A stretch of DNA of 64,000 nucleotides from Malacoraja senta (taxonomy: Eukaryota), in the NCBI GenBank assembly GCA_038087875.1, contig CM075992.1, forward strand, positions 5,272,001 to 5,336,000. The letters are read 5' to 3'. The position numbers and the translations under genes are program-made. This document shows, in pieces, positions 24,530 through 52,870 of the stretch. The notes beneath the pieces are model-generated. The model had not been told where the DNA came from. It did no database searches and saw only the letters and a program-made list of their open reading frames with translations. How positions within the stretch are numbered: position 1 is the first letter of the stretch; every line of letters begins with the position of its first letter.

Positions 24530-25403
24530 TTTAGATTTTAGAAATACAGCGCGGAAACATGCCCTTTGGCCCACAGAATCCGTGCCGACCCTATACACTA
24601 ACCTACCCACACACACAATTTTACAACTTACCGAAGCCAATTAACGTACAAACTTGTATGTCTTTGGAGTATGGTACGGAGCACCCAGAGTAAACCTACG
24701 TGGTCACAGGGAGAACGTACAGACAGCACCCATAGTCAGGATTGAACCTAGGTCTCTGGCGCTGTACAAAGGGGCTATCCCACTGCGGCGACCTAATCCA
24801 CGAGTTCTGGCGAGTTTGCCCTCGACTCATACTCGCAGCATGGTCGACACGAGGTCCTAGGAGGTCTTTGTAACTCTCCTTCATGCTCGAGAGTAGTCTC
24901 GAGGCCTCAGTTAGGTCGCAGCGTATTTTTCAACATGCTGAAAAATGCCCGCGAGTAAAAGAAGGTCGCCGCAGTGGGATAGCCCCTTTATACAGCGCCA
25001 GAGACCTAGGTTCAATCCTGACTATGGGTGCTGTCTGTACATTCTCCCTGTGACCACGTAGGTTTACTCTGGGTGAATAAAAAACCCTTTTTTTACTCGT
25101 AGGTTTAGTCGATGTAGGTCGTAGTAGGTCGGCATGTTATTCGTAGGAATCGAGGGTAGTCGAAGGTAATCGAAGATAGTCATAGTCTTCATCATAGTCG
25201 AATGGAGGTCAAAGGAGATCGTCTTCACTCTCCACTATTCGGTGTCCAATTTTCCCGAAGCTAGTCGAGGCTAGTCTTCAACATTGTCGAAGGAGGTCTT
25301 CAACATGACATTTTTTCAAACTCTTCTAAACTCGCCAATTAGGTCGCCCAAGTGGGACAGCCCCTTAAGGTAGCAACTCTACCGTTGCGCCACCATGTCG
25401 CCC
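24530..25403 (-). mobile_element. HE1-type SINE split by a Harbinger MITE
   Basis: SINE body 24530-24769 and SINE head 25369-25403 flank the MITE. Confidence 0.85.
24770..25365. mobile_element. PIF/Harbinger-type MITE carrying an internal 113-bp inverted duplication
   Basis: Termini AGGGGCTATCCCAC / GTGGGACAGCCCCT, right TSD TAA 25366-25368, left CAA (TAA in the duplicated copy). Confidence 0.85.
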
Positions 25404-26539
25404 GAATTTGTGCATGGCTTGAATATACTCATGTGTGGTATGAATTAACTGCAAAGCATGTCAACATATTCCACTGTTTCTCAGTACATGTCACAATACT
25501 AAACAGATCCCAATATTAAATACAAGAAGGAACTCTGTGTCCCTGCATTCTCTTCATGCACTGCAGATACTGCACTGGGTACTGCAGCATATTTCAACGG
25601 TGTTCCTGTACATCTCAATATTCACTGGCTCCTGTTATGCAATAGTACAGCATAGCTCAATATTCACCCCAAAGTTATGGGACTACCTTAATACACATGG
25701 TCTCAGCACAAATATAAAATACTACAGGTCTCAATCCCCTCTTCCATTACGAGTACCTATGCGACCTTATCTTCCACTCCAAGGTCTTCTACCATCCTGT
25801 TTCACAATGCTCCGTGCCATGGTGTAATACAATGAGGCTAAGTGTTTATTTCCTGTTACATTAAAGTTAAGAGATTTATGTAGACATAAGGAACTGCAGA
25901 TGTTGGTTTACAAAACAAAAGGCACGGTGCTGAATCAACACAGCGGGTCCGGCAGCATCTCTGAAGAACATGGATAGGCGATGCTTCAGTGGAGAAACAA
26001 GGAACCGCAGATGCTGGTTTACACAAAAAAGTCATAAAGTGCTGGAGTAACTCAGTGGAGCAGGCAGCATCTCTGGAGAACATGGATAGTTTCCAGTCAG
26101 GGCCATTCTTCAGACTGGTTTCAAAGGTTTATGCACCCTTCTGCTTCAGGAGAAGGCTTGTAAAGCCTTTTAAATGTAGATTGATGAATGGCATTATAAA
26201 TGAGATCACCTCATTTGTTGTTTTTTTTAAAGCTAAGGCGTGCTGATTCCCTCTGGCGCTTGCTTTCATTAATCCTCGCCGGGTTACGCAAAGGGTTTCT
26301 TTCATCAAATGGGCGGGTCATTCTGCCTTGTTGATCAGTCAGCGAGCAGCATTCACTCAGGTAACATGGAGACCAGTTAGTCCAGTTATAGACCACCAAG
26401 CACCCAGCCCCCAGCTCCTCCCACACCACACCCTGGGGCCCAGGACCCCCTGCTCACAACAACAGCATTCTGCCTCTTCAAAGCAGCTTTGCTATAGGAG
26501 TACGGTGCATTAAAGAAATAAGAGAAGTTATTTACAATG

Positions 26540-27075
26540 AAGGTCTGGAGAAGGTTCTCAATCCAAAATGTCACCTATCCATGTTCTCCAGAGAAGCTGC
26601 CTGATCCGCTGAGTTACTCCAGCACTTTGTGTCTTCTTTTTTAAAACTAGCACCTGCAGTTCTTTATGTGCAGGAAGGAACTGCAGATGCTGGTTTAAAC
26701 CGAAGATTGACACAAAATGCTGGAGTAACTTCAGGCTGGGCTTCAGACCCTTCCGAAGGGTCCCAACCCAAAACATCACCCATTCCTTCTCTCCAGAGAT
26801 GCTGCCTGTCCCGCTGAGTTACTCCAACATTTTGTGTGTATCTACAGTTCCTTATCTCTCTCAACACTTGCCAGGCTTTGTCCCACCCCCACCTCTGCTT
26901 TCCAGCTTTCTTCCCACTACTGCATGCGGAGATATTAAGATGGTCTGAAGAAGGGTCTCGACCCGAAACGTCACCCATTCCTTCTCTCCAGAGACGCTGC
27001 CTGTCCCGCTGAGTTGCTCCGCCATTTGGTGTCTATCTTCGGTTTAAAAAAGCATCTGCAGTTCCTTCCTACACA
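26540..27075. mobile_element. Cluster of PLE ends in both orientations
   Basis: Three plus-strand and one minus-strand PLE termini, with an intact hammerhead core at 26945-26972. Confidence 0.75.
26945..26972 (+). ncRNA. Minimal hammerhead ribozyme motif
   Basis: ggt-CUGAAGA-A-GGGU-CUCG-ACCC-GAAAC-GUC-acc, with a 3-bp stem I possible. Confidence 0.65.
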
Positions 27076-27487
27076 CACTGAATATTGCAGAGAGTTCTCA
27101 ACCTTCGGCCTATGAGCAATATGGGATCACAAAGATGAAAACAAAATCGGGTCACGATAAGGATTAATTTATTTTTTAGATTACTTCAGTGTAACACTCA
27201 GAGAGATGCAAAAATGTAGCACTGTAGTGTGGTGGTGAAGCTACTCGACAAGCAATCTTTGATTAAGAGACACATTTAAAATGGGGAATTTAAGTCATTA
27301 TATAACCTGGAATTGAAACACTTAAGTTACCCTGACTAACGGAAGCCGTGAGGTTGCTGCAAATAAACTGCTGTTTCACTGCTAATTTTCAGGGAAGGAA
27401 CTGTCTAGTTCTGACTTGGTGTGGACCAGATGTGACTTCAGATAATGGGGTTGACTTTAAAATGCCTCCTTATTCAGGGATTGGTTA

Positions 27488-27980
27488 AGTTGCTGTCCCA
27501 CTGTACGAGGTAATTCAAGAGCTCTCCCGAGTTAAAAAAAAATAATCAAACTCGTGGTAAGCACGTAGAATGTACGGAGCGGGTACGTCAGAGCTCGGAC
27601 GTCTCTTAGCGGCTCGTAACGCTAACGGCAGGTTCTCGGGGAAACGCGATAAGCTCGTGAAGATTTTTCAACATGTTGAAAAATGTCCACGAGAGCCCCC
27701 GAGTACCTACGAGCGGCTATCACCGTAATTCTCAGAGTTCGAATCAGGGGAAACTCGGGAGAACTCTTGAATTAGACTTAGACTTAGACTTAAGATTCCT
27801 TTATTGTCATTCAGACCTTTCGGTCTGAACGAAATTTCGTTGCCTGCAGTCATACATATAATAAATAACAAAACACACAAATTAACATCCACCACAGTGA
27901 GTTCACCAGGCACCTCCTCACTGTGATGGAGGCAAAAGTCTTAAAGTCTCTGTCTCTGCTCGTACAGAGGGACAGCCCCA
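27488..27980. mobile_element. Harbinger-type MITE (family of 31278-31609, opposite orientation) with a retroelement in its right TIR
   Basis: gctgtcccactgtacgag...aagagctctcccgag at left. The right TIR is split by 27775-27957 and ends gggacagcccca|taa. Confidence 0.75.
27775..27957 (-). mobile_element. Retroelement 3' fragment with gacaataaa plus (CTAAGT)n tail
   Basis: Terminal hairpin tcagacc-tttc-ggtctga. A related end occurs at ~48630-48690. Confidence 0.65.
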
Positions 27981-28625
27981 TAACAAATGCCGATACCTCT
28001 CCACTGGTGAGCAATGCACATCCCGTGAATTAATGTGTTAAAGGGTAACTGATTTTCTTTCAGAATAACAGTGTTGATCAATGAAGTTTTTAGATGATTT
28101 ATATTTATGCGATAAAGTCAATAATCAGATATTGTAATGCATTCTGCGCACCATTTTAAGATGACAAGAAATCTTAGTTAAAAAGCTTGAGGATTACTTG
28201 AGATAGGGTGGAAGAAGGTTTATGTGCAGCATGAACCATGGCAAGGTACAAATAGCTTGTTCCTATGCTGAAAATTCAATGCAAGTCTGTTCCACTATCC
28301 AGTGCAGGCCTTTGCATAGACCGACTCAACAGGTTGCTTCACGTACACAGAGATCACAGACTTGTTGTGTTCCCAAGCTTTACTCATGAGCTTAATACCA
28401 ACCACCTGCCCGAAAAAATTCCAGCACAGATGGAATTTCACCTGCTCCACATACCTGTCAAGTTATCTGAATGCAAGATTCAAAACACACTCAGGTTCAA
28501 GGCTTCTAATCAGAGGGAAAAATCTCAAGCCCACTACATCTCTCCATAACACACATCTGCAGTGCCAAACTTTCTGTGTTTGATCTTACCAACAGGTATT
28601 GTACTGCAACTTGCATTTCTCCTTA

Positions 28626-29198
28626 TTAGACTTTTAGAGATAGTGTGGAAACAGGACCGTCCGGCCATAGAGTCCGCACCGACCAGTAATCACCCCGTAC
28701 AATAGTTCTATCCTACACATTACGGACGATTTACAATTTTACAGAAACTATTTACCATTAGGTACAATTTACCGTTAGGCACTAGGGACAATTTACCATT
28801 TTACCAAAGCCAATTATCCTACGACTTGTACGTCTTTGGAGTGTGGGAGGAAACCCGAGCACCCGGAGAAAACCTACGCAGGTCATGGGAAGAACATACA
28901 AACTCTGTAGAGACAGCACCCGTAGTCAGGATCGAAACCAGATCCTGACCACGGGTGCTGTCGATATGCAGTTTGTACATTTTCCCTGTGACCTGCGTGG
29001 GTTTTCTACGGGTGTCCCAGTTTCCTCCCACACTCCAAAGGCGTACAGGTTATGGTAAATTGTAAAGCCAGCTGGTACAAATGTGTAAATTGTCCCTAGT
29101 GTGTGTAGGATAGTGTTAGTGTGCGGGGATCGCTAGTCGGCACGGTCTCGGCGACCCGAAGGGTCTGTTTTCGCGCTGTATCTCTAAACTAAATTAAA
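28626..29198. repeat. Head-to-head pair of headless HE1 SINEs forming a ~570-bp inverted repeat
   Basis: Junction cagcacccgtagtcaggatc-gaaacca-gatcctgaccacgggtgctg. Confidence 0.85.
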
Positions 29199-31249
29199 AT
29201 TTTCAATGCACTGAATATTGGCACTTATTCCCAAAGTACTGACTGCCTCCAGATTACCTCCATTTCACACATTCCCAGAACGCAGCTGTCTTGGATTTGG
29301 ACTGTCATGTGGCATTGAATATAGAGGATTGCCTGTGGCATGTCAAAGAATTTGCACACACAATGAAGCTGACCCCCCCTCTCCCTACCCCTTCCTAATA
29401 TCCTTAACCAACAACCTTTTAACGTTGTGAATCACAAAATTCCACAAATCAGATCTCATAGCTAGGCCCAGTTGGCCCCATTCTTGGTCACGTGTGTGAC
29501 CCCCAAAGATGAAAAATCGTGCAACACGTCTCTTCTAATTGTGAAAGCATTACAGGCATATTGTTTAGTACTGCACATATATGACCCATATTTTTTTTTT
29601 CCGGTTGATAAAGTGAAATTTTTATACGTTATGCTGACAATGTTCGTTTCGGGTAAGAGGTCAAACAAGATTGGCCACGTGTGTGACACCACACAGAAGC
29701 GTTTTGCAAAGTCTGCGGATTTAAAAAAAAAGCTTGAATGTTCATATCTTTAGCAGACGTGCATTATAGTTCTGGCAGGCAGGAAAATAGCAATGAATAA
29801 GATTCATCTCTTACAAGAATTTTTTAATGTATGGCACCATTACACCACAAAATAACAACCAGTTCATTTGAGCAGCTTACAACAAGCTTGTTGATCATTA
29901 AATTCTCCAATCTTTGGTAACTCCCCCCCCCCCCCAACCTCCACATTTTACTCTCTCCCTTCCTCTAGCCCCACCTGGATGCAAACCTTTTCCCCACTAC
30001 CCAGCCCCCTTTTCCTCTTTATTCCTTCTAGCTTCACGATTCACGCATTCTCTCCTTATATTACAGCCTTTTTTTATTCTTCTCATCTCTGGTTTTTGTC
30101 TATCCATCTGCCAATAACATCCCCTCCCCCGCCCCACCTTCATTTATATCCACCTATCACTCGCCAGCCCTTGTTCTGCCCCCACTCGTATCTCAGCTTT
30201 CTCCCCCCCACCACCATAAATAGTCTTCAAGAAGGCATCTGAACCAAATCGTCGCCTATCCATGTCTTCCAGAGATGCTGCCTAAGAGATAGCGTGGAAA
30301 CAGGGGCTTCAGCCCAACAAGTCCACGCCGACCAGCGATCACCCCATACACTAGCACTATCCTAGTCACTCGGGACAATTTTCATTTTTTTTAACCAAAG
30401 CTAATTACCTACAAACCTGTACTATCATTCAATGTAGGCATTTGGTTCCTCGTGTCGGACTAGTTATTCCATCATCGATACTGATCAAAGACTTCTTTAA
30501 AATCTCCAATTGCCCAAGACAAGACAAAAGCATCAACTAATTCCTATCTCTGCCCAGACAAGAACAAGCTGTTTGTTAAAATATGTGCTTTGCTCCTGAA
30601 ATCAGTGACAGCTCGGTGACCTAAACTTTGTTGACTTAGCAGCATTCCATTGCCTCATGTTAAGTCACTAGACTGGAGATAAAGACGCTGATGACAGTCA
30701 GGAATAATCTCCATATGCATCTTACTGTGGTAAACAGCCAAAAGGCTTGCATTGCAAATGTGCTTTCCAGAACGTTTCAAAATCCTCACATCAACTTGCA
30801 TTCGTGTGCTTTTGTTTTGATGTGTCCTAATGTCGTTCAGCATGTATACTGACAGGTCCTTCAACTCAAGTCTCCACCCATTTATACCAATCATGCATAA
30901 ATCCCATTATACTCCGCCCACATTCCCTTCAACTACTCCCACCCCTCCACTCAATCATATTCTACCAGTCAGCTGAACACTGAGAGCCATTTCCAGCGGC
31001 CGATTAACCTACCAACCCGAACGTCTTTGGGAGGTGAGAGGACACCGGAGCACCAGTGTAAATGGCAGAACATGCAAACTCCACACGGAACCAGGACTGC
31101 AGGTGCTGTGTGGCAGCAGCTCTATTAGATGCACCACTCTAGCATATTGAAACAGCAAGCATAATCATTGCACCCATCCAAAGTCCATCCAGCAAAGTGA
31201 AAAACATGCTTATTCTTGGAACTCCTAACCTCTGCTGTTCATCTCTGGG

Positions 31250-31775
31250 GTGGCACGGCGGTAGAGCTGCTGCCTTAAAGCCCTGTCCAACGGTACGAGT
31301 TCATTCCAAGAGCTCTCCCGAGTTTGCCCTGATTCGAACTCGGAGATTAACGGTAATGGCCACTCGTCGGTACTCGGGGCTCTCGTGGACATTTTTCAAC
31401 ATGTTTAAAAATCTTTTAAGAGTCTTCCCGTGCTTACCTGCCGTTAGCGAGTCTTCCCGAGTACCTGCCGTTAGTGGTACGAGCCGCCAAGAGACGTCCC
31501 CGAGCTCCGACGTACCCGCTACGTTCATTCTCCGTGCTTACCACGAGTTTGATTTTTTTTTAGACTCGGGAGAGCTCTTGGAATGAACTCGTACAGTGGG
31601 ACAGGGCTTTTACAGTGCTAGCGACCCGGGTTCTAACCTGACTATGGGTGCTGTCTGGACGGAGTTTGTATGTTCTCCCTGTGTCCTGTGTGGGTTTTCT
31701 CCAGGCGCTCCGGTTTCCTCCCACACTCCAAAGACGCACTGGTTTGTAAGTTAATAGGCATCGTTAAAAATTGCA
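31250..31775 (+). mobile_element. HE1-type SINE split by a Harbinger MITE
   Basis: ggtagagctgctgccTTA [MITE] TTAcagtgctagcgacccggg. Confidence 0.85.
31278..31609. mobile_element. PIF/Harbinger-type MITE, 332 bp
   Basis: About 45-bp TIRs AAGCCCTGTCCAACGGTACGAGTTCATTCCAAGAGCTCTCCCGAG, TTA TSD 31275-31277 and 31610-31612. Confidence 0.9.
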
Positions 31776-31943
31776 AAACCAGCCGCCCCCGGTTTTCCGC
31801 GAGTAAAATTCTATTTGCCATGCTGCGGAACATCGTGGGGAAGTACTTGCGGGCAGTCGGGACACAATACAACACACACCGATGAAATGCATATACAGGC
31901 ATCCAAACACGTCTAATGGTCTCCAATCAAAAGGGCAACTTAC

Positions 31944-32025
31944 AGACACGACGCATCCCCGTGTAGGCTCCTGATACACTGCCCGCTGTTTTCACATGGA
32001 CGGTGATTATCCTGGCACTGCAGAG
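31944..32025 (-). CDS. notch3: Notch receptor exon 2, N-terminal part of EGF-like repeat 1: (A)LQCQDNHRPCENSGQCIRSLHGDASC(L)
   Basis: Polypyrimidine acceptor cttcccttgctctttcctccacag| and perfect donor |GTAAGT. 82 nt, phase 1 in and phase 2 out, with four EGF-spaced Cys. Aligns by eye with human NOTCH2 [28 protein letters not shown] and NOTCH3 exon 2. No O-fucose S/T before Cys3, as in Notch EGF1. Paralogue uncertain. Confidence 0.85.
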
Positions 32026-33429
32026 CTGTGGAGGAAAGAGCAAGGGAAGTCACTGTGTGAGTGTGAGCTTCAATATAACCAGCAAAACAACAAATCAACC
32101 GGCAAATAAACAGTGGCAACCCGAGTTTCCGCAACGTTCGAAGTATTATTCCTGCAGGAACACAGGAGGCTTCGGCAAAGTATACATAGAAACATAGAAA
32201 ATAGGTGCTGGGGTAGGCCATTTTGCCCTTCGATCCATTCAATATGATCATGGCCAATCATCCAAAATCAATACCCCTTTCCAGCTTTCTTCCCATATCC
32301 CTTGATTCCATTAGCCCTCAGAGCTATATCTAACTCCCTCTTGACACAGCAAGATCCCACAAACATATGATTGTGACCAGATAATCTTACTTGTTTTATT
32401 TGCAGTTATTTGCAGTAAAAAGATGCAATTTGAGTTTATGGTTAAACCATTGGCTTGGAAACTGCACATAACTCACTTGCTCTTCATCCAACAGTGCTGT
32501 GGGAATCAGCAAGACAGAAGTGGAATGGAGTGAGATGGAGGGGGCGGGGGGAGGGGGGAGAAGGGGAAAAGAGGAAAAGAAAGGGAGAGTGTGAGGGAAG
32601 AGAAAAAGAGAAACAAGACAGAAAAAAGTACACAATTGATTGAACTGACAATCCTAACCATGATAATGTTAAATTAACATTTCACTTTAAATATACAAGC
32701 TTTCCAGTTGTGATCTGTGACAGAAAGAGCTTCATCAGTAAATCTGTAGAAGGGTTTCGGCCCGAAATGTCGCCTATTTCCTTCGCTCCATAGATGGTGC
32801 CTCACCCGCTGAGTTTCTCCAGCATTTTTATCTACCTCAGTAAATCTGATTACTTTCACTTAAAAACCATGGGGAATGCATCTTGCTCTTGAGAAAACGT
32901 TGTAATCCACACATGGAATCATTGAATTTTACAATGCAGAAAGACGTCAATCACCGTGATGTGCTTGCACTGGCTCAGAACAGTGGGGTCAAATTCGGTC
33001 CCACGCTCCGGCATCTCCCTCATAACCCTGCAATTTATATGTACCCAAATGCTCTCTAAACATTCTTACAGAGTCTGCTTCCACTTTTTGGGTAGTGTGT
33101 TCCAGATGTCTGTGTGTGAAAAACAATTCCCTTCATTTCCTGTCTATTATTAAAGCTACTGGAAGATGTTGTGAAACACGCACCCAGCTAGAAATGATGC
33201 AGGATAGAGGTCGCGCGCAAATCGCGCGTCATCATGCGTCAGCACAGCCGTCTGGTACGCGTGACGTCATTAAAATACCCTGCTTCCCTATTCTGCTTCA
33301 TGACCATCATGGAAGAACTACAGATTGTATTGTGTCCAGAACTGATTCATAATGTATCAAAAACACTAGAGGTCTTAATAATAACTTCTGGACACACCAT
33401 TATAGCCATCAAATCACGCTAATATACAT

Positions 33430-33582
<153 letters not shown>

Positions 33583-34944
33583 ATCTATCTATCAATCTAT
33601 CTATATCTATAATATAAAATTACTAGCATGATTTGATGGATATTATATATATACGTATATAATATCAAAGATAGCATGGTTTTACAAAGGAATTTTTTTT
33701 TTACTGACGATTTATTTCTATTGAAGAAATGGAGATGGCTGAGAAGGGAAATGCAGTTGATATTGTGTGCATGGAGTTTCAATAGGTGTTTGGCAAAGAA
33801 CCATGCACAGGATTAGCAGAAAAGGCAGCCACAGTATTGAAGAGAAAGCAGGGACTTTGGTGGTGATGCCATTCTGATGTCTTGAGGCTATTGTATAGTC
33901 TTTCCACTTTCTGGTTAGCACGCAGCAAAAAGCCCTTCACTGTACCTCGGTACACGTGACAATAAACTAAACTAAACTGCACCTCAAGAAACATGAATAG
34001 GTCTTACAGCAGGTTCAAAATGAGTAACATGGTTTCTGGAAAGAGAGCTTTCAGCCACAAGGTTGACAAGAAGTAGATCAGAGTTGTTCTCCTTGGAACA
34101 AACCAGGCTGAGTTGAAACTCAAGAGAATGCAGATGCTGGAACCTTGAATAAAGCACAAAGTGCTGGAGTAACAGCGGTTTCGGCAGCATCTGTGAAGAG
34201 AACAGATAGGTGATGTTTTTGAAGAAGGGTCCCAATCCGAAACATGCCTTTCCATTCCCTCCACAGATGAAGGCTGAGAGGAGATGCGGCAGAGTTGTGC
34301 AAGATCAAACTGAGTGCCGATCGGGAAAACAGTGTGAGTCTGCTCCATCAGTGAACCGTTCATAGACCTTAGCGTATAGATTTAAAGTTTGGGGCAAAAG
34401 ATGTGGTGGCAGATGGATGAGTGGGACGGAGGAAAACCTTTCTTCTGGACAGTGCAGGTATGTTCGTGTCTGAAGATCGCTGGAAACCAAGACAATTAGA
34501 ACTCATAAGATTAGTCATGATTTGGAGGAAGAGCAGAACTTGAGGGTGATTGGATTGCACTGCTAAGTGTCAGAAAACTGATGACCAGTTTCCTATTCTT
34601 TTAGATTCTCCCAGAATAACCCAGGATGCCTCCCACACAAACCAGCCAATTTGGCGACTTTGTGCATGTTGCCAACCTTATACACCCATCCTCTTTACTT
34701 TGTGCATATTCAATGTTACTAAAGCCTCCTCATTCTCAGTGACGTTGCCAGCATCTAATTTCCTATCTAATGCCTGAAACTTCTCCTCCAGAATAAGTAA
34801 TTTTGATCCCATCCTTAAAATGGCTGTCCTTTCACTTGTAACTCCCCTTCTTGTTAGCAACTAATTCTTTGCCTACTCTCTCTAATTGACATTTCTTGTA
34901 CCCTGCATTTAGCTTGCTTGTCTTGTATACAGGTCGTATAGATT

Positions 34945-35240
34945 TCATATAGAGGACATAGGTTTAAGGGGAAGGGGAAAAGATTTAATAGGAATCCGAG
35001 GGGTAACTTTTTCACATAAAGGGCGGAGGGTGTATGGATCGAGCCGCCAGATGTGGTGGTTGAGGCAGGGACTATCGCAATGTTTAAGAAACAATTAGAC
35101 AGGTACATGGATAGGACAGGTTTAGAGGGATATGGACCAAATGCAGGCAGGTGCGACTAGTGTAGCTGGGACATGTTGGCCGGTGTGGGCAAGATGAGCC
35201 AAAGGGTCTGTTTCCATGCTGTATGACTCTATAACTCTAA
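34945..35240 (+). mobile_element. CR1 LINE 3' fragment with the SINE-shared tail type
   Basis: RGHRFKGKGKRFNRNPRGNFFT motif and tail gccaaagggtctgtttccatgctgtatgactcta. Confidence 0.8.
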
Positions 35241-37032: not shown

Positions 37033-37271
37033 AGGGCCTGACCCACTTTAGGGTGATTTTTTTGGCGACTGCTGGCGTCATTGACTGACGTGTCAGGGTC
37101 GACGATAGATTTTGAACATTTCAAAATCCAGCGGCGACAAACGCAAATGTTGCGACACTCGAGGAAACACCGCGCGTCAATACGTCATCACGCCGCGGCT
37201 TTTTCCGTGACCTGATACGTCAGTCAATGATGCTGGCAGTCGCCGAAAAAACACCAAGTGGGACAGGCCCT
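37033..37271. mobile_element. PIF/Harbinger-type MITE, 239 bp
   Basis: AGGGCCTGACCCACTT / AAGTGGGACAGGCCCT, about 65-bp imperfect arms, TAA TSD 37030-37032 and 37272-37274. Confidence 0.9.
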
Positions 37272-42219: not shown

Positions 42220-42413
42220 ATCTGTTCCTTCTCTCCATAGATGCTGCCTCACCCGCTGAGTTTTTCCAGCATTTTTTGTCTACGTTCGATTGTTCCAGCA
42301 TCTGCAGTTCTTTCTTAAACATTCCGGTAAACCTCTTTGGTGCTATATACTGTAAACACTACACCTTGTATATTATTCCCCATTCCACGATTTTAAAAAA
42401 AATGAATAGCTTA

Positions 42414-42697
42414 AGGGCCTGTCCCACGGTGCGAGTTCACCCAAGAGCTCTCCCGAGTTTTAAAAAAATCAAACGTGGTAAGTACATAGAATGTATGTAG
42501 CGGGAATGTCGGATCTCGTGGATGTCTCGTAATGCTAACGGCAGGTACTCGGGAAACGCGGAAACTCGTGAGGTTTTTTCAACAGTGTGAAAAATTTCCA
42601 CGAGTAAAAAAATACTCGCGATGAGGTACCACGAGTTTGATTTTTTTTTTAAACTCGGGAGAGCTCTTGGGTGAACTCGTATCGTGGGACAGGCACT
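42414..42697. mobile_element. PIF/Harbinger-type MITE, 284 bp (family of 52304-52588)
   Basis: About 45-bp TIRs AGGGCCTGTCCCACGGTGCGAGTTCACCCAAGAGCTCTCCCGAG. Flanks are TTA / TAA (imperfect TSD). Confidence 0.85.
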
Positions 42698-42894
42698 TAA
42701 CTCTACCAAAGCAGGCGCATGTTTTTTACTGTGTTAACTATCCTCACTCTAGAAACTAATACTTCATTGGTGCCAGAGCCACATCCACTGGGAGGTTGCA
42801 GCAGACAGCATTGAACTAGTTGGACTTGGGCAATGCTGGGCTGAGCTGCAACACATAGAGGGAACTGTCCAAGAATAATACTCCAGACGTACGA

Positions 42895-43745
42895 CGGCAT
42901 AATGGTGCAGCGGTAGAGTTGCTGCCTTACAGCGCAAGAGACCCCAGTCCAAACCTGACTACGGGTGCTGTCTGTACGGAGTTTGTACATTCGTCCAGAG
43001 TCCTGCATGGAGTTCCTCCGGGTGCTCCGGTTTCCTCCCACACTCCAAAGACGTGCAGGTCCAATTCTACACGGCCATCGTAGAGTCTGTTCTCACCTTC
43101 TCCATCATGGTCTGGTTTGGCTCAGCCACCAAGCACGACACCTGGAGGCTGCAGTGAATCGTCCGATCAGCGGAGAAGATTATTGGCTGCAACCTTCCCT
43201 CCATTGATGAACTGTACACTGCAAAGGCCAGGAAGTGAGTGGGCAAGATCATCTCTGACCCCTCTCACCCTGACCACAAACTCTTTGAATCACTTCCCTC
43301 TGGAAGGCGACTCCGGATTGTCAAAGCTGCCACAGCCAGACATAAAAACAGTTTTTAATCCACGAGTAGTTGCTCTACTCAACAGCCAAAAATCTGTAGC
43401 CTCCCTTTGATCTGGTATTTTGTTGGTTCACATGCTTGATCAATGGTGTTTTATCATTAATGTTTTATTATTATTAATGTTTAGTGTTTTCTGAGTCATT
43501 CGTAACTGTCACTGTATGTCATGTTGTTACTTGTGGGCGGAGCACCAAGGCAAATTCCTTGTATGTGAATGCTTGGCCAATAAACATACTTACTTATGTT
43601 ACTTATGTTTCGGTAAAAATTTGCTTCCGTAAAAATTGTAATTTGTCCCTAGTATGGAGGATAGTGGTAGTGTTCGGGGATCGCTGGTCGGCGCGGACTC
43701 GGTAGACCAAAGGGCCCGTTTCCATGCTGCATCTCGAAACTAAAC
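42895..43745 (+). mobile_element. HE1 SINE split by a Rex1/Babar fragment (43061-43610)
   Basis: Insert translates FYTAIVESVLTFSIMVWFG...DPSHPDHKLFESLPSGRRLR with stops. SINE halves lie on both sides. Confidence 0.85.
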
Positions 43746-46184
43746 AAGTTGGTACAAGATCCTGAGTTATCGGTTACAAAACTGGCAGGTGGTCACCTGG
43801 ACATTTCTTTCATCAAGTTACAATTTGGGATGGGGGCAAGGAAAAAGTAAGAAGGTAGGGGAGGTGGGCCAAGGGGATGGGTAATGGAAAAATACTGGAC
43901 AACACAGGGAAGCAACACCAACTAACTAGAATGATGGATGGATATCCTTGGCTTCCTTTTGTACTGGAAGTCAGTCCTATTCTTTTGCTGGACCGGCCAA
44001 GGTTAATAGCTGTGGACAAAGCAAGGTTAAATCCTTCTGCAATCACCACTGCTAATTAAATAGTCTTGCAATCTTCATTGCCAAGTGCCCAAGTCTGGAT
44101 TGGCATCCTCTGTGCCTCTAGCCTCTCCACGCTAATTAAATCCCAAAATCTTGGTCCCAGTCCAATGATACATTTCTCTTCCAATTTCTGCAAAATAGCC
44201 ATTGCTCTTAAAGTGCGATGCCCAAAACCGAACACCAGACACATGGTGCCCAAACAAAGACTTATAAAGAAGACACAAGGAACTGTAGCTGCTTGAATCT
44301 TGAACAAAAACAAAGCGCTCAGCAGGTTATGCAATATTTGTGGAGGAATGGACAAGTGACATTCGGGTCGGGACCCTTCTTCAGACTGGTGTATATCGAG
44401 GTTCAATTTATAATGTTTCAGCATTACATCTGCCTCCTTTTTAAAAAACCTTAAAAAAAAAAATTGTTTTTTCTTATCCAGTGATAGACACAAAATGCTG
44501 GCGTAACTCAGCGGGTCAGGTGGCGTCTCTGGTGAAAAGGAATGTGATGTTTCAGGTCAAAACCCTTTTTCAGACTCTTATCCAGTCATCTTTAAAGACG
44601 TGTGTGTCCACACACTATCTGGTCTCTTCAAAATTGTACTTTTCAGTTCATATTTCTTCCCATTTGTCCTGCCCAAAGTCTTTTGCTTCACAGTTCTATC
44701 ATTCCATGTGTGTTGTTAATGAACCGCAGAGTGAGTTTCTCAGTGGATGCAAAGGGAGGAGGAGAGTGAGCCCAGAGCATTTGACCACAGATTTCTTCCA
44801 GTTTAGATGACACAAAGTGCTGGAGTAACTCAATGTGTCAGGCAACGTCTTAGAAAAATGCAGATACCAATGCAAATGATGTTTCAGGTCGCGGCCCTTC
44901 TTCAGACTGCATTGTATTTCTTCCAGTTTACATACAGTTAAAACTCCAAGCGAATTGTGAAAGATGTCCTTGGCAAAAGGGAGCACAACTCCGACAATCT
45001 GGCACCTTTGGTGGAGCAGGATTAGCAGAGTTTCCGGACTTTTGGACGTGACTTGGTATTGAGACCCCAACCAACACATTATTATTTCGCTTTGTTTGTT
45101 TAAACATGTTACAAAGATGATATAATAATGTTTCCAGTGAATTTAAAAGGAGCAGGAAATAGGCAACGCTGCTCCAGACCCCCCATTCCATCTACAAACT
45201 AACCGACGTCCCTGACCCCTGGTGTTCCACACCCCCAGCTATACACCTAGACTATAGTCCAGACCACAGCTCCGGCCACAGATCCCGCTTGCTCTCCGGA
45301 CCCTGCCTCACAATGTTGTAGACCATCTACAGTTCAAATGAATCCTCAATCACTGTCGTTTCCCTTGATAACCCGTGTAGAGCAAACCATTACAGAGAGT
45401 TAAACAGAAGATGTGGCGCATCATGTTCCACACAGCAAAGGGGAGAGGAAGAGTGAACTCATTCACTCCGTTGACGCTAATACCACAAGATTACCACAAA
45501 GCAGGAAGGAGCAGTAGACAAGAGCTGTTTGCTTTTTGATAACGACTTATGTTTATGTAGCATCTCGAATGTAGTTAAGTATTTTCAGTTCATAAGTTTT
45601 AGGAGCAGAATTAGGCCATTCAGCCCATCAAGCCTACTCCGCCATTCAATCATGGCTGAGCGATCTTTCCCTCTCAACCCCATTCTCCTGCCTTCTCCCC
45701 ATAACCCCATACACCCGTATTAATCAAGAATCTATCGATCTCTGCCTTAAAAATATCCATTGACTTGGCCTCCACAGCCTTCTGTGACAATGGATTCCAC
45801 CAGTTGAGTTAACAAACTGCTGTAGCCAAACAAAATCTGAGCCCAAAGACGTACGAGTATACAAGTTAATCAGCCCCTGTAAATTATCCCTGGTGTGTGG
45901 TAGAATGGGAGGATCTGGGGGAGTTAACGGGAATGTGGGGAGAATTACATTTGATGAGATGAGCGTGAATGCATGGTTGATTGTTGGTGGTGGAGTCGAT
46001 GGGCTGAAGGGCCTGTTCCGGTGCTGTATCTCTCTTTCCTGACTCTGTGAATGAATCTGCTTCCACTGTCCTTTCAGCCAGGGAACTCTGGCCTGGGAGT
46101 ATTTGCAGTGTGATAAAAGTGTTGCTCTCATCACTCCTGAGCTCTTTAGCTAATCACTGAATCTGTGTAAAGCACCAGGGACGG

Positions 46185-46460
46185 CAGCCTGCGTGGACGG
46201 AATACATAGGCAACTTTTTTGGGGTCAGAATCCTTCTTCAGACTGATTGTAGTAGGGGGGGAAGAAAGCTGGAAAACTGGAAAAGAGGTGGGGATGGGAC
46301 AAAGCTTAACAAGTGAGATACAGGTGAGAAGGGCCGATTGGCCGATCCTTAGAGTAAGTGACAAAGGCTGGAGATAAAAAGGTGTCAAAAGATTGTCAGA
46401 TAAGGAGAAGAGTGAAACATAAAGCCAGAGGGAGGAATGTCAATGGAAGTGGATAAAGAA
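46185..46460 (-). mobile_element. Degenerate Penelope-like 3' region
   Basis: ccttcttcagactgattgtagt followed by a purine-rich PLE UTR. Confidence 0.6.
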
Positions 46461-46613
46461 GCTGGGGGGGGGGGGGGGGGTGGACTATGGAACAGTGGAA
46501 CAAATGATGAACACAGGAAAGGAGGAGTTGTGGGACAGAAAAGAGAGATTTTAGGTTTAGGCTCATTATTGTTACATGTACCGAGGTTCAATAAAAAGCT
46601 TTGTTTTGCATGT

Positions 46614-46775
46614 TACATAGAAACATAGACAATAGGTGCCGGAGGAGGCCATTCGGCTCTTCGAGCCAGCACCGCCATTCATTGTGATCATGGCTGATCG
46701 TCCCCAATCAATAACCTGTTCCTGCCTTCTCCCCATATCCCTTGACTCCACTAGCCCCTAGAGCTTTATCTAACT
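46614..46775 (-). mobile_element. CR1 LINE 3' end
   Basis: catagaaacatag tail and reverse-complement CR1 3' UTR. Confidence 0.8.
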
Positions 46776-48723
46776 CCGATCAGATCAGGTAACAATATAC
46801 ATAATTACAATCAAGTCAAATTCAAGTGGAATAGGTAGAGCAAAGGGGAAGATACAGAGTGCATAGTTCTCATCACTGTAACATACCAGATCGATGTCCA
46901 CAATGGGGTAGTGGTGAATCAGATGGTATCCCAAGCCCTTGAAGGTGAAGGGTCTGTTACTTAAAATTGGAAAATTCAATGGTCACACACAAGGTGCTGT
47001 TGTGTTGGAAGGAACTGCAGATGCTGATTTCCATCGAAGATAGACACAAAATGCTGGAGTAACTCAGCGGGTTAGGACTCTTCCCGAAACGTCACCAAAT
47101 CCTTTTCTCCAGCGATGGTGCCTGACCCACTGAGTTACCCCAGTATTTGGTGTCTAGCTACCAGGTGCTGTTCTTCACTCTGGCGATGGAGGCCCAGGAC
47201 AAAAATGCCGGTATGAGAATGGGAAGGCAAATAAAAATGGTGAGCTTCTATGGCTCCAACCTCAACAGCTTGTGTTTAGAACGAAGGCGACACGGTGGGC
47301 CAGGACAGAGGCCCGGAGACGGGGAGGGGAGAGAAGACCATTGAATGTACACCCTGTCTCTGTTTGTCTCCTTCCCAGCGGATGTCGGGAAGGTGAAATG
47401 TCATTTCTCAAGAGCTCCTCCAGCATTCAGCAACTGGCTGCTGCAGAGGGCTGACAGATACTGGACCAGTTTTTAATTTCGTTGTACATGTTTACATGTT
47501 ATAATGACAATAAAGTATTCATTCATTCAATGGGTGCACACACAAAGCGTCATGTTAATTTGGAGAGGGGCAGCGAGGAAAAAAAGGAGTTGGGGGGGGG
47601 GGGGGTTGGTGGAGGGACCTTGGGCACCAAGTTCAGAAGTCAGATTCCAACTAAAATAAGAAAAGTTAGCATCACCCCTTCCAAACAGAAATAAATTGTT
47701 ACGCTGCAGATATTGCCTCACGGCAAGGGATAGAGGAAAAAAGGGGAAAAAAGAATTTTGAGGGGGAAAAAAAGGGATCCTTGCAGGAGTGAGTTGGAAG
47801 GAACTGTAAATGCTGGGTTGCACAGAAGATAGACACAAAATGCTGGAGTAACTCAGCGGGTCAGGCAGCATCTCTGGAGAGAAGGGAGATGCTGCCTATC
47901 CCGCTGAGTTACTCCAGCGTTTTGTGTCTATCTTGCAGGAACGAGCTGTATTGGCAGCCTGTGCCTCAGACAATGGAGCGAGTCAGTGGGCCTGAATATT
48001 TCACTGACTAACGAGGATCTCGTCTTGTCGAGGCTAAACTACAATGCAAGTCACTCTAGCATTTTGTGTCTACCTTCCATGCCAAAGTAGAACTGTGGAC
48101 ATGGCCACACCCTGGTCACATTATCACCGGGCTTGTGGTGGATTGTCCCAGCCCCTACAATAGACCTGGGCGCTCTCTTCGCCATTCCATTCTGTCTGCC
48201 TTCAAGTCGTGGGTTCCCAAGGAGACTGAGTTGTGAAGGATTACCCGGCCGTAAACCAAATCTCCACAACCCACCCTCCCTCCCTCCCTCCTCTACCCCC
48301 CGACCCTATAACCTCCTTCCATCGCGAGTAATCGACTTATTGGAAAGGGAGGGCTGTGCCTGAATTCACTGCCAGAATTCACTGAACTCCCTGACCAACT
48401 TGGATGAAGGGCATGTGAAAAAAAAAAACTTAAAAGTGGGATCAAGCATTTTGGATTCTTTCTTTAGCCTTGTGTTGCTGCGGTTGTGTTAGCATCATCA
48501 TATGACGGGCAGCTGCTGTAATCTGCATCTTTTGGAGTTCAAAGCCAAATTCAACAACAAAACTCATCCCGCGAATGGGATGATTTGCAACTTTTCCCAA
48601 CACACAGGAGAGGTTCCAGAATGGGATTCATCAAGTATCAAGTATCCTTTATTGTCATTCAGACGTTTCAGTCTGAACGACATTTCGTGCCTCTTTTTCA
48701 ATGTTTGATGCAAGTTGACATTA

Positions 48724-48725
<2 letters not shown>

Positions 48726-48772
<47 letters not shown>
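48726..48772. repeat. (GT)n microsatellite in proximal intron 1
   Basis: Direct. Confidence 0.95.
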
Positions 48773-48776
<4 letters not shown>

Positions 48777-49166
48777 ACCCGGCGCCGCAAATGCAAAGGG
48801 ATTTGGGGGGGCAATATTGCGGTAAATCTGCGGGCTTTTGTCTTTCAATGGCCCCATTAAACTGCAGAACAAATGACCGACTGTACGGCTGAAAGCCGGT
48901 GCATTTGGTGAGCGACGCTCAGCAAACACTGGGGCTTTTCTGTCCACTTTGAAATCCGTCTCCTTATAAAAAAAAACCACACGAGATAAAAATCTGCTGT
49001 TTTCGACACAGCCGTTTGCAACAGTCAGAAATATAAAGTTTCCCAGATCTTGCAGCTGGGAGCACAAATTAATTTCGTTGAGTTCAAACACAAAGGGTTC
49101 TTGGAGAGTGAAGACTCGTCCCGCAGTTAGCTGTGAAATGCAGTGATTTGCAACCAACTAAAACCA

Positions 49167-49174
49167 TTCCCACG
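49167..49174 (-). promoter_or_regulatory. Candidate RBPJ/CSL site CGTGGGAA about 140 bp into intron 1
   Basis: Plus-strand TTCCCACG is the high-affinity CSL consensus, in unique CpG-rich DNA. Motif match only. Confidence 0.35.
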
Positions 49175-49315
49175 ATCGTTCAGCAACACATTATTTTACA
49201 TACACATGCCACCTGATACTATGCAGAAAACCCATCGCAAATCCTGATTCCCCCCCCCCCCCTGTCCTGTACAGATACTTCTTGCAAATAAAGTTTTCCT
49301 TAAATCAAACCGTAC

Positions 49316-49376
49316 CTTCACAAAGCGCCGTCAGACAGACTCCCCAAAGTAAATTCCAGAGTTTTAAATCCCCCAT
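49316..49376 (-). CDS. notch3: Notch receptor, coding part of exon 1 (signal peptide MGDLKLWNLLWGVCLTALCE plus phase-1 G)
   Basis: ATG in strong context (GCAATGG). 61 nt encode a hydrophobic signal-peptide-like stretch ending at donor GAAG|GTACGG, inside a CpG-rich non-repetitive region. Splices in frame to the exon at 32025-31944 (G+CT=Ala). The Notch family call is strong; notch3 over notch2 is my inference from resemblance to teleost Notch3 N-termini (MGNYSLW...) and human NOTCH3 EGF1 (EAACL). Confidence 0.8.
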
Positions 49377-49794
49377 TGCTCGCAGTTTTAAAGTTCCGAG
49401 ATTTTCTCCGATTGCACGTTTAACTTATACATCCGTCCAAACGTGGAGCCCAGGGTTTCTTTGTGATCATGGAGAAAGGCGGGGGAATTTATACACTTTT
49501 TTTGTTTTTAAATAGACAAAGCGTCGGGAGAACCCTCGGCTCGAACCCCCGATCCCGCGCCTCCAAACTTCAGAGCAAACTTTTTGAAAAGTTCATCACC
49601 GCTGGCAGCCTGGAGTAGCGCAGCGGACTGTATCCCTCCGCGCCGCACGGGGGGTTGTGCCAATTGACTGGGTCCAGTGCTCACCCGGGTCGCTGCTGCT
49701 CGGAAACTCCCAGGCAACAGCCCCCCGAGTGTGTCCCGTCCCCTTAAGCACTCCTCTTGCTTCAACTGGAGAGGGAGAGGGGAAACACAATCGG
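49377..49794 (-). promoter_or_regulatory. CpG-rich 5' UTR / proximal promoter region of the Notch gene (runs into an assembly gap)
   Basis: Repeat-free, CpG-dense sequence directly upstream of the ATG, with a CCAAT (~49660), a GC-box-like GGCGGGGG (~49478) and a minus-strand TATAAA (~49493). The TSS cannot be determined. Confidence 0.6.
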
Positions 49795-49994
49795 NNNNNN
49801 NNNNNNNNNNNNNNNNNNNNNNNNNNNNNNNNNNNNNNNNNNNNNNNNNNNNNNNNNNNNNNNNNNNNNNNNNNNNNNNNNNNNNNNNNNNNNNNNNNNN
49901 NNNNNNNNNNNNNNNNNNNNNNNNNNNNNNNNNNNNNNNNNNNNNNNNNNNNNNNNNNNNNNNNNNNNNNNNNNNNNNNNNNNNNNNNNNNNNN
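49795..49994. other. Assembly gap (200 N) in the Notch promoter region
   Basis: Run of N. Confidence 1.
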
Positions 49995-52269
49995 CCTCCC
50001 TTGACTTGGTTTTGGGGAGCAACGCCAAAAAGGAGAGCCCCTTTTAATTCAATGATTCATATGTGTCATGTCTTGCGATGCTTGCTGTGGATCGTTCCAT
50101 ATCAGAGGTTCATAGAAGGGTACAATTTACCAATAAACCATCATAAGACACTTCCAAAACACAAAGTACTGGAGTAACTCACTTTGAGTAACTCCAGCAC
50201 TTGGTGTTTTGCTCAAGATTTCAGCACCTGTAGTTCCTTGTGTCTCCATATTGTCCTTGCACTTCACAGTCTGTCACAGTAACCAATTTCCCTCCTGGGA
50301 AAAATAAAGCTATCGTATGGTAAAATGTCAATAGGTAGCTCAGACCAGGTAACTTAGTTGTGGAGAAATGTAATCCTCTTTATCCCATTTTCTTTGCAGG
50401 CGTCGGTCCGTCCAACCCGAATATTGCTGTCTGAGTCTCTTTGCTCTCTGCGTCAATACATGATTCACATTTACCTTCTGCCATTTGTCTTCCTGATGTT
50501 TGCAACATCTGGCTGTGTGAAGACCTGGCTGTGTGAAGACCTCCCTGATTTGCAGAAGTACTTTTTCAGGATACTAATGTTAGGAGAAGCAATAAATAAA
50601 TAGTTAGTGCTATGCGGTACAAAGCACATCAGAACCATTATATCCTGGCATTATGTTAAACAAAGATATTAAATGATAAGCGACTGAGCCAGATGAATGG
50701 AATTGGGTTAAATATCAAACACAATTTAATTGATTCTGAAATGTATGAAGCCATATGGTGTCTTGTTTATTTAGTATATTGTCTTGTGGTTATTTCTCAT
50801 TTTGTATCTGTGGTCTATTCCATAATTACTAGTCTTGTTATGATTCGGAATGAGGCCGTTCAGCCAATCAGGTACATGCTAGCTCACAGCTGATCAATTC
50901 CAGATGAATAAGGCCATTCCCCACCTTTTTTTTCTGTGGTCCAGAAAACTATTCTCTCACACACACCTATCAATTCTCCTTTGATTCTCTTTCCAGGGTA
51001 AACTAAGGGTGGGTTACAAGAGCCAATACATTTACCAGACACATAGTGCTGGAGTAACTCAGCATCTCTGGAGAACATAGATAGGTTAAAGTTTTGGATC
51101 AGGATCTTTCTTCAGATTGAAGAAGAGTCTCAACTGTCTCAATAGAAACTAATTACTAGTCAGAGGGTGGTGAATCTGTGCAATTAATTGCCACAGAAGG
51201 CTGCGGAGGTCGTCAATGGATATTTCTAAGGTGAAGATTGATAGATTCTTGATTAGTAAGGGTGTCGGGTTATGCGGAGAAGGCATGAGAATTGGGTTGA
51301 GAAGGAAAGATAGATCAGCCCTGATTGAATGATGGAGTAGACTTGATGGGCCAAATGGCCTAATTCTGCTCCGATAACTTATGAACCTATAGGGTCATAG
51401 TGATACAGTGTGGAAACAAGCCCTTCGGCCCAACTTGCCCACAGCGGCCAACATGTCCCAGCTACAGGTAGACAAAAATGCTGGAGAAACTCAGCGGGTG
51501 AGGCAGCATCTATGGAGCTAAGGAAATAGGCAACATTTCGGGCCCAAACCCTTCTTCAGACTACACTAGTCCCACCTGCCCGTTGAGTTACTCCAGCGCT
51601 TTGTGACCTTTTGTGTATGTTTGGCATGTGGGAGGAAACTAAGCATCCTGTGGAAACCATCTTGCTCATGGGAAGAATATGCAAATTCTACATAGAGAGT
51701 ACCTGAGCTTCGGATAAAGTCTGATTTTGGACCTACGAGGCTGTGGCACGAACATCCCCACCACCATGAGGTTTAGCCCTTTACTGAAACATGGGGATCC
51801 CAATAGATGAGTCATTTCCTGGCTCCGGAATAGACAGCCCATATGGATCCATGCAGGTTTTGTCAATTAACACACAATTAAGCTATTGCATTTAATATCA
51901 TCACGCTTTTGTAAATGGGGTGGGGTATGAACATATAAAATCTATCGGCATTCCCATTCCCGATTGTCATTGGCAACGACTGTCTGGCACCTGCTGCCTC
52001 CAGGAATACAAACCTCACTCTGGCAACTTATCCGCAAAATCCTCATTGGCACCTAGGGAGTATTGCTGTTTAACTGGGCACCTACATTTCCTCTTAACTA
52101 GAGTTAAAAGATCCCATGGTACTATTTCGGAAAAGTTCTCAGTGAAGTGCTGTACAATATTAAACTGCCAACATTCACATGTGACTTAATGCTGCATGTG
52201 TAAGCACCAGATGTATTCCACTGACTGTAAGATGCACCCTCTTAGAGAAAGCAGCAAGTCATTTAGAAT

Positions 52270-52870
52270 GGCATGGTGGTGCAGCGGTAGAGTTGCTGCC
52301 TTAAAGGCCTGTCCCACGATGCGAGTTCACCCAAGAGCTCTCCCGAGTTTAAAAATAAATAAAACTCATCACGAATATTTTTTTACTCTCGGAAATTTTT
52401 CACACTGTTGAAAAAACATCACGAGTTTCCGCGTTTCCCGAGTGCCTGCCGTCAGCATTACGAGCCGCTACGAGACATCCACGAGCTCCGACGTACCCCC
52501 TATGTAAATTCTACCTACTTACCACGAGTTTGACTTTTTTAAAACTCGGGAGAGCTCTTGGGTGAACTCGCATCGTGGGACAGGCCCTTTACAGCATCAG
52601 AGACCCGGGTTCAATCCTGACTACGGGTGCTGTCTGGACCGAGTTTGTATGTTCTCCCCGTGACCTGCGTGGGTTTTCTCTGGGTGCACCGGTTTCCTCC
52701 CACACTCCAAAGACTTATAGGTTTGTAGGCTAATTGGGTTCGGTAAAATTGTAAATTGTCCCTCGTATGTGTAGGATAGTGTAAGTGTGTGGGGATCGCT
52801 GGTCGGCGCAGACTCAATGGGCCGAAGGGCCTGTTTTCTCGCTGCATCGCTAAACTGAACTAAAACTAAA
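52270..52870 (+). mobile_element. HE1-type SINE split by a Harbinger MITE
   Basis: gcagcggtagagttgctgccTTA [MITE] TTAcagcatcagagacccgggttcaatcc. Confidence 0.9.
52304..52588. mobile_element. PIF/Harbinger-type MITE, 285 bp
   Basis: Near-perfect ~47-bp TIRs, TTA TSD 52301-52303 and 52589-52591. Confidence 0.9.

Follow-up and report, generated by a model that had tools for sequence, protein, structure and literature searches.

A PIF/Harbinger MITE family with a SINE-head insertion hotspot and frequently unequal flanking triplets in Malacoraja senta

The MITEs found in the heads of a putatively tRNA-derived SINE of Malacoraja senta belong to an ordinary PIF/Harbinger family with its own flank preference. 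They insert at TWA, and the TTA of the SINE head appears to be a hotspot through its fit to that preference and its copy number alone, a reading to which a probability of about 0.8 is assigned. In addition, the two triplets flanking an element differ at the middle base in 15–29% of duplications. For this we lean towards insertion in the style of piggyBac, in which donor overhangs are carried along, so that one or both flanking triplets often derive from the previous site and the duplication reproduces the target only in part.

MITEs and host SINE copies in the window

The window is a stretch of 64,000 nucleotides (GCA_038087875.1, contig CM075992.1, positions 5,272,001 to 5,336,000 of the forward strand). 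It holds seven MITEs whose ends are of the A(A/G)GNNCTGTCCCAC type, the number given in the preliminary description, at 4890-5424, 24770-25365, 27488-27980, 31278-31609, 37033-37271, 42414-42697 and 52304-52588. Three of them (24770-25365, 31278-31609 and 52304-52588) occupy the identical TTA in the heads of three separate SINE copies, and the lengths given for them (596, 332 and 285 bp) are right. The host SINE is presumably HE1. It has an A-box-like and a B-box-like motif on either side of the MITE site, also as described earlier. ARAGORN reported no tRNA genes in the window, and one SINE copy searched against Rfam gave no matches.

At the first locus, on the minus strand, the SINE head (25366-25392) carries the target TTA (25366-25368) and the A-box-like motif (25382-25392), and the SINE body (24682-24766) carries the B-box-like motif (24739-24748). 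Within the MITE between them, one of its ends and part of the SINE body recur in inverted form, as a 113-bp copy (24963-25075, plus strand; 98% identity) of 24682-24794, and at its outer junction the MITE lacks a clean duplication of TTA. The other two loci lie on the plus strand and show TTA/TTA duplications. In one, the head (31251-31277) with its A-box-like motif and left TTA (31275-31277) is followed by the MITE and then by the right TTA and body (31610-31736; B-box-like motif 31629-31638); in the other, the head (52269-52303; left TTA 52301-52303) is followed by the MITE, the right TTA and the body (52589-52722; B-box-like motif 52608-52617). An empty copy at 42896-43060 on the plus strand, with its unfilled TTA at 42927-42929, served as the reference. 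The MITE at 4890-5424 occupies a site in a second repeat, as had been noted. The remaining three are at non-SINE sites, one with TAA/TAA (37033-37271) and two with discordant TTA/TAA duplications (27488-27980 and 42414-42697).

The initial observation at the SINE site was confirmed in part, with the seven MITEs and the three insertions at one TTA standing. The GCTG-CAGC mini-hairpin proposed for the site does not appear in the structure predicted for the SINE head, whose fold is no better than those of shuffled sequences (z 0.26). Recognition of a hairpin was rejected, as this fold is not significant and the target is double-stranded DNA. The three inserts had also been said to differ internally; those at 31278 and 52304 prove to be relatives, with identity at 116 of 138 aligned bases, although the window contains, outside SINEs, a still closer relative of each.

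Family identity and target duplication

The proposed Harbinger identity is borne out by the transposase and the TWA duplication. Full-length copies of 4.7–5.9 kb encode a DDE_Tnp_4 transposase, with 150 scored matches in the genome; in copy L161, a 478-aa frame matches PF13359 (DDE_Tnp_4) with an E-value of 2.7e-34. On the opposite strand of L161, a frame at 1867-2355 matches MADF_DNA_bdg weakly (E 0.0032, 18.2 bits against a cut-off of 22, profile positions 1-35 of 84) and is probably split by an intron. The CTGTCCCAC TIR is present at the ends of L174, L104, L109 and L113, and the ends of the MITE at 4890-5424 match L109 and L113, which bear the transposase. The suggested autonomous partner with related ends was found among the full-length copies; a direct autonomous counterpart for any of the three MITE types at the SINE site did not turn up, a shared 14-bp end aside.

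The empty SINE-head site (S1) has one TTA and the filled site two, with TTA/TTA in 41 of 56 S1 loci. Among 111 pairs collected blind to the flanks, 89 were TWA/TWA, 63 of these identical; the other 22, with a non-TWA triplet on one side, were left out of the count. A TTAA duplication of the Kolobok/piggyBac kind was rejected, as the empty SINE site reads TTA followed by C and three bases are duplicated.

Occupancy and independence of SINE-site insertions

A genome-wide count gave no fewer than 53,288 exact TWA+TIR ends (41,623 + 11,665) for the family. Occupancy of S1 was compared with that of a TTA in the body of the same SINE (S4) and of a site in an unrelated repeat (S2, the hotspot hit at 4890-5424). 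S1 was filled in 457 of 50,961 SINE heads (0.90%), S4 in 111 of 26,559 (0.42%) and S2 in 162 of 33,445 (0.48%, with a denominator inflated by tandem arrays), corresponding to 20, 9.5 and 11 times the mean TWA, for which the baseline density was taken from 1.0 Mb. The expectation that S1 is occupied beyond plain TWA abundance therefore held, and its occupancy exceeds that of S4 and S2 by a factor of 1.9–2.2 (Fisher P about 1e-12 to 1e-14). SINE heads with TCA in place of TTA are avoided, TCA being present in 22 of 77 empty heads and 5 of 100 filled ones. S1 holds about 3–9% of family copies; in an unbiased sample it accounted for six of 80 elements, plus one known locus outside the retrieved sequences. 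The window overstates the effect, since three of its seven TTA-bearing SINE heads are filled compared with about 1–2% genome-wide. Three of seven MITEs at S1 also exceeds the genome-wide share (binomial P 0.001–0.017 for shares of 3.1–8.6%), and such clustering within a single window is a matter of local chance. A third hotspot, which is LINE-like, was scored by the preference matrix alone.

That the insertions are independent, as first supposed, was upheld by the 56 filled S1 loci, which comprise 27 MITE groups in both orientations and three SINE variants. The closest host neighbour carried the same MITE group at a single locus of the 56, and hosts of the same group were no closer to each other (median distance 0.295 vs 0.267). 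A few identical pairs (L024/L025 and L028/L029) could point to SINE+MITE composites amplified by retroposition; yet these pairs have common flanks beyond the SINE head and so look like segmental duplicates. Given this, the diversity of groups, orientations and SINE variants, and the lack of any large all-filled SINE clade among the 56 loci, composite amplification was rejected for the loci sampled and retains a negligible probability.

Flank preference or SINE targeting

A preference matrix was trained on 243 insertion half-sites outside repeats, with positions assumed independent. Base composition differs from background at -1 to -4 and at -6 (P below 1e-5), with C/G preferred at -1 and -3, A at -4, and G disfavoured at -2 and C at -6. 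A target preference beyond the duplication, examined as a mark of PIF/Harbinger membership, is thus present in this family, and the available text of PMC2836001 describes an extended preference of 9–15 bp as a trait of the superfamily. For S1 the matrix predicts 11-fold enrichment with 3 bp on each side, 6.5–9-fold with 4–5 bp and 23-fold [10–45] with 7 bp.

These predictions bear on how S1 becomes a hotspot. The idea put forward at the outset, that the family is directed to the SINE as a safe haven in the manner of Dada, could draw on 837 exact junctions at the S1 flank genome-wide, on a full-length element (L177) that is also at S1, and on an inferred match of position between S1 and the anticodon region used by some Dada families in the part of PMC8869645 available. 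More than 90% of copies nevertheless lie elsewhere, two control repeat sites show roughly half the occupancy of S1, and the preference learned from half-sites outside repeats suffices for most, if not all, of its enrichment, so neither SINE targeting nor a safe haven is supported. The 3-bp TWA duplication and Harbinger transposase also contrast with the 6–7 bp of Dada. Dedicated targeting is largely refuted already by the share of copies and is considered very improbable. In the literature search, which covered few subscription sources or Repbase Reports and is weak on this point, no precedent for SINE-directed Harbinger or MITE insertion was found. A milder form of attraction, in which SINE heads, beyond the sequence preference, would draw about twofold more insertion at S1 through Pol III factors or an open chromatin state, has somewhat more in its favour and is still unlikely. 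It would account for the excess of S1 over S4 and S2, and the 4-, 5- and 7-bp matrices place S4 at or above S1, the 7-bp matrix ranking them opposite to the observed order. On the other hand, the 3-bp matrix gives an S1:S4 ratio of about 1.7 (11.2 vs a mix of 10.9 and 2.0), near the observed 2.2, the bootstrap ranges of the predictions are wide, and many MITE groups as well as the young full-length family use S1 at a similar few percent. The preferred reading of a hotspot by flank preference and copy number has its own difficulty, as the matrices with 4–5 bp of flank fall short of the 20-fold enrichment seen. Here the MITEs would be mobilised in trans by the transposase and a Myb/MADF-like partner of the full-length copies, and the SINE TTA, which suits the ordinary preference and numbers well above 50,000 copies, would become a hotspot. 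The earlier interpretation is supported in Harbinger identity, partner, independence and 20-fold excess over TWA, and unsupported in SINE targeting and the safe haven; taken literally, neither of the outcomes that it had named as refuting was observed.

Unequal flanking triplets

At loci not selected by flank, the middle base differs in 26 of 89 TWA/TWA duplications; this count replaces an earlier 32 of 118, which was dropped because it included internal sub-terminal repeats and flank-selected loci. Among the first 100 filled sites of each kind, TAA was found on the 5' side 14 times at S1, 13 at S2 and 23 at S4, compared with 1 of 77, 1 of 165 and 2 of 60 empty sites. Among young, near-identical full-length copies, the triplets differ somewhere in 10 of 24. 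A search for more such copies found right ends 5–6 kb from left ends in none of 20 windows, so the test of discordance at birth rests on 24 elements; most of the 1,740 ends in the young family probably belong to shorter derivatives. Among the young discordant copies, empty alleles were found for L177 and, once, for L186.

The likeliest cause is carry-over from the donor. An excised element would keep the 3-nt overhangs of its old site, these would pair with the cut target, and a mismatch at the middle base would sometimes be left, or be repaired toward the donor, giving unequal triplets. Alternatively, the inequality may have arisen after insertion, by point mutation, by correction of one inverted end from the other with a hairpin as template, or by inter-copy recombination across loci, which is possible and viewed as the less probable course. 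In favour of such a later origin, pairs discordant for A and T are perfect inverted repeats, and one SINE-site copy (L097) has a foreign left flank. Against it, TAA/TCA, TTA/TCA and TAA/TAC pairs, which are not inverted repeats, occur in copies over 99% identical, and SINE sequence borders the element on either side at eight A/T-discordant loci among the 56 at S1. The TIR core, moreover, shows three A-T changes in 1,998 bases (in a scan allowing at most one mismatch per end), and discordant elements show neither extension of palindromy into the flanks nor a link with TIR-pair identity. Some counts are less kind to donor carry-over: when grouped by best-hit identity, low-identity MITEs are more discordant (14 of 32 vs 9 of 47; P 0.024), all eight of the more diverged full-length copies are concordant, and unusual ends or lengths mark three of the ten young discordant copies. 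Contiguous empty alleles, found for 6 of 26 discordant and 24 of 63 concordant elements (P 0.22), point slightly towards a post-insertion origin.

Comparison with known systems

Excised piggyBac carries overhangs made of the old duplication, according to the available portion of PMC7351741. It uses a fixed TTAA by way of a hairpin, so that mismatches arise only at non-canonical sites, reportedly the subject of a study by Li in 2013; the degenerate TWA of the present family would give them routinely. The family also differs from piggyBac in its transposase and in a 3-bp rather than 4-bp duplication. The available parts of PMC4561436 and PMC11254759 describe excision of mPing by staggered TWA cuts with 3-nt overhangs, and uptake of donor TTA/TAA bases into Cas9-cut sites, which may be the same mechanism as in this family. 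Those data come from engineered assays, and in the text covered neither study checks naturally occurring free insertions for donor bases on both flanks; here the trace would be in the natural copies of a family from an animal. According to the available text of PMC11254759, the duplication is intact at free mPing insertions, unlike the 15–29% unequal ones reported here. For natural unequal duplications, the literature search, covering few subscription sources, yielded an Arabidopsis MITE paper besides the work on mPing in engineered assays.

The family resembles PIF/Harbinger elements and Tourist-like MITEs (rice mPing/Ping/Pong and zebrafish Harbinger3_DR) in its DDE_Tnp_4 transposase, short TIRs and TWA duplication, and, as far as the accessible text of PMC2836001 goes, in target preference beyond the duplication and many MITE derivatives; its particular flank preference and its number of ends set it apart. 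Like Dada, it inserts into a putatively tRNA-like head between motifs resembling promoter boxes. Dada, as presented in the accessible sections of PMC8869645, is strictly target-specific and sometimes replaces flanking target sequence on one side; the present family has less than 10% of its copies at the SINE site.

Implications

In a single window, a hotspot formed by a favourable site in a high-copy repeat looks like targeting, and the S2 and S4 controls show a way to distinguish them. Disruption of the SINE promoter by insertion at S1, if true, would affect only about 1–2% of SINE heads. The hotspot is an ordinary claim, and the unequal triplets matter more. Should natural free transposition bring donor bases along, Harbinger insertion would be mildly mutagenic at its flanks, each such insertion writing a point mutation, and tens of thousands of copies would record the strand-transfer and repair chemistry of PIF/Harbinger. 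Annotation pipelines that require identical duplications would then overlook roughly one copy in four, and the mPing overhang model could be tested cheaply genome-wide in any species with recent PIF/Harbinger copies.

Insertions at the SINE head

The TTA in the SINE head (S1) is a real hotspot, likely with an ordinary cause (probability about 0.8). All seven MITEs whose ends were given in the preliminary description were recovered in the window (C16:5272001-5336000), and three of them occupy this same TTA in three SINE heads, with an A-box-like motif on one side and a B-box-like motif on the other. The MITEs at 31278 and 52304 each show a clean TTA/TTA duplication. The outer junction of the MITE at 24770 is not clean, and inside this MITE its own end, with adjoining SINE body, recurs as a 113-bp inverted duplication (24682-24794 and 24963-25075, 98%), perhaps produced by a template switch between the inverted ends. 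A comparable inverted duplication of SINE sequence is present near 28823-29050. The GCTG-CAGC mini-hairpin proposed for the site does not appear in the predicted fold. The site could be identified in ten SINE heads of the window; it reads TTA in seven, and three of these are filled. Under genome-wide shares the binomial P for three of seven MITEs at the site is 0.001-0.017; this is a local excess, absent genome-wide.

The 1.94-Gb genome holds 53,288 exact TWA+TIR ends (41,623 + 11,665), corresponding to at least some 26,600 elements. The TIR with the adjoining 9-base SINE flank matched 837 times, equal to some 3% of elements; on reading, 3 of the first 30 listed matches proved to be non-SINE. 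When elements were sampled without regard to flanks over the initial 5.4 Mb of contig C1, 6 of 80 lay at S1, besides one known locus not included in the 80, and so did 5-6 of the first 100 left ends listed for a related young family (counted by eye). Taken together, these counts indicate that the site is used by 3-9% of copies and that more than 90% lie elsewhere. The young family has 1,740 left ends in the C1 listing, and most of its copies appear shorter than full length. Among its first 100 left ends, the triplet reads TAA 64 times and TTA 28 times (P 2e-4), a bias that fits donor carry-over or oriented insertion.

Independence had been proposed from the inserts of the window. Those at 31278 and 52304 are related, but each is nearer to a copy in the window outside the SINE site. 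Independence is borne out by the host SINE comparison, which took in 80 of 102 empty copies. Where SINE sequence flanks a filled S1 on both sides (56 loci), the inserts fall into 27 MITE groups, occur in either orientation and lie in three SINE variants. Carrying the same MITE group does not make hosts closer to each other (distance 0.295 vs 0.267), and the nearest host neighbour was an empty SINE in 32 cases, a host of another MITE group in 23 and one of the same group in 1. All-filled host clades are small and of mixed MITE groups.

Occupancy and target preference

Occupancy (filled/total) was determined with matched 11-base flanks for S1 (457/50,961), for a TTA within that SINE's body (S4, 111/26,559) and for the repeat site of the 4890 MITE (S2, 162/33,445), the rate of the last being lowered because many S2 copies are in tandem arrays. 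The repeat carrying S2 forms dispersed 66-bp tandem arrays across several hundred kb (C1, 2.70-3.28 Mb). Two of the first 100 SINE heads listed were filled, indicating a true S1 occupancy of about 1-2%. Relative to the average TWA half-site (4.2e-4; TWA density 0.0328, from 1.0 Mb of genome DNA), S1 is enriched 20-fold, S4 9.5-fold and S2 11-fold. The site is thus used well beyond plain TWA abundance, as had been suggested; the dedicated, Dada-like targeting of the SINE proposed with it is very improbable, given the enrichment of both controls and the large majority of copies away from the site.

A preference matrix was built from 343 insertion half-sites minus 100 repeat-like ones (243). C/G is favoured at -1 and -3 and A at -4, while G is disfavoured at -2 and C at -6. 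S1 ranks among the best 0.4-3% of TWA sites, with predicted enrichments of 11x (3 bases per side), 6.5x (4), 9x (5) and 23x (7; 10-45). The observed 20x falls within the widest estimate and exceeds the narrowest two- to threefold. The accessible text of PMC2836001 gives the PIF/Harbinger superfamily a target preference of 9-15 bp. The TCA variant of the SINE occurs in 22/77 empty heads vs 5/100 filled ones (P 3e-5), as expected if recognition is of the triplet rather than of the SINE. The twofold residual of S1 over S2 and S4 is significant and may reflect a chromatin effect; weak tethering at SINE heads is considered unlikely, and an ordinary sequence preference is favoured.

Further hotspots were seen in a LINE-like repeat with two neighbouring TTA sites (L087, L096, L097 and L074), and MITEs lie within other MITEs beside the TIR or just inside it (L180, L348). 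In locus L209, a SINE head carries a full-length element (1837-8504) at a mutated TTA 8 bp upstream of the usual one, which is unfilled.

Unequal flanking triplets

Among paired MITEs of flank-unselected loci, 89/111 have TWA on both sides, and the middle base differs in 26 of these (16 TAA/TTA, 10 TTA/TAA). Two window MITEs, 27488-27980 and 42414-42697, are discordant TTA/TAA. Where the target is TTA, TAA stands on the 5' side in 14 (S1), 13 (S2) and 23 (S4) of the first 100 filled loci each (by eye), compared with 1/77, 1/165 and 2/60 empty sites; for the 3' side of S1 the count is 8/100. Since 8/56 S1 loci with SINE on both flanks are A/T-discordant, inter-locus recombination is not the whole cause. 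Another 3/56, as well as L316 and L328, have TAA on both sides though the empty allele is nearly always TTA, and both triplets may be donor-derived. Of the 24 full-length copies that share at least 97% identity with L161, 14 are concordant, 5 A/T-discordant and 5 TWA with near-TWA, three of these ten having odd ends or lengths; more diverged full-length copies are concordant (8/8). Palindromy stops short of the flanks. Discordance is commoner in low-identity MITEs (14/32 vs 9/47), which counts against a pure at-birth origin.

Carry-over of donor overhangs is somewhat favoured as the cause, by analogy with known transposons. In the portions of these sources available, mPing excision was proposed to proceed by staggered cuts in the duplication that leave 5' overhangs (PMC4561436), donor TTA/TAA moves with mPing into Cas9 cuts (PMC11254759) and piggyBac brings TTAA overhangs to its target (PMC7351741). 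A donor overhang would pair with the cut TWA of the target; where the middle bases differ, repair would put back the target base in some insertions, while in others the donor base would be fixed on one or both sides through replication or repair. Free mPing insertions, however, keep the duplication intact according to the same part of PMC11254759, in contrast to the discordance in the skate family. No report of natural unequal target duplications, or of SINE-directed Harbingers, was found in a literature search of partial coverage.

Full-length partners and classification

Candidate autonomous partners with related ends, as anticipated for the MITEs, were found. A PF13359 search of the genome gave 150 scored matches among 534 candidates, and full-length copies, mostly 4.7-5.9 kb, encode a 478-aa transposase (E 2.7e-34), with a weak MADF match in an opposite-strand frame. 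Four copies (L174, L104, L109 and L113) terminate in the TIR CTGTCCCAC, as do the MITEs; the end of L109 matches the 4890 MITE well past the TIR, and L177 is a full-length copy inserted at S1. The common 14-bp end suggests that the three SINE-site MITE types are mobilised by proteins of the full-length copies. Many full-length Harbingers among L161-L220 are near-identical (>99%), with an intact 478-aa frame and tandem sub-terminal arrays, and the family could be very recent or still active. There is also what looks like another transposase group, at about 74% identity.

Dada elements, as characterised in the accessible part of PMC8869645, make 6-7 bp duplications with strict specificity, neither of which is seen here. 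The family shows the tested PIF/Harbinger features apart from the second gene, for which the frame with the weak MADF match is a candidate, and it adds a member to PIF/Harbinger.
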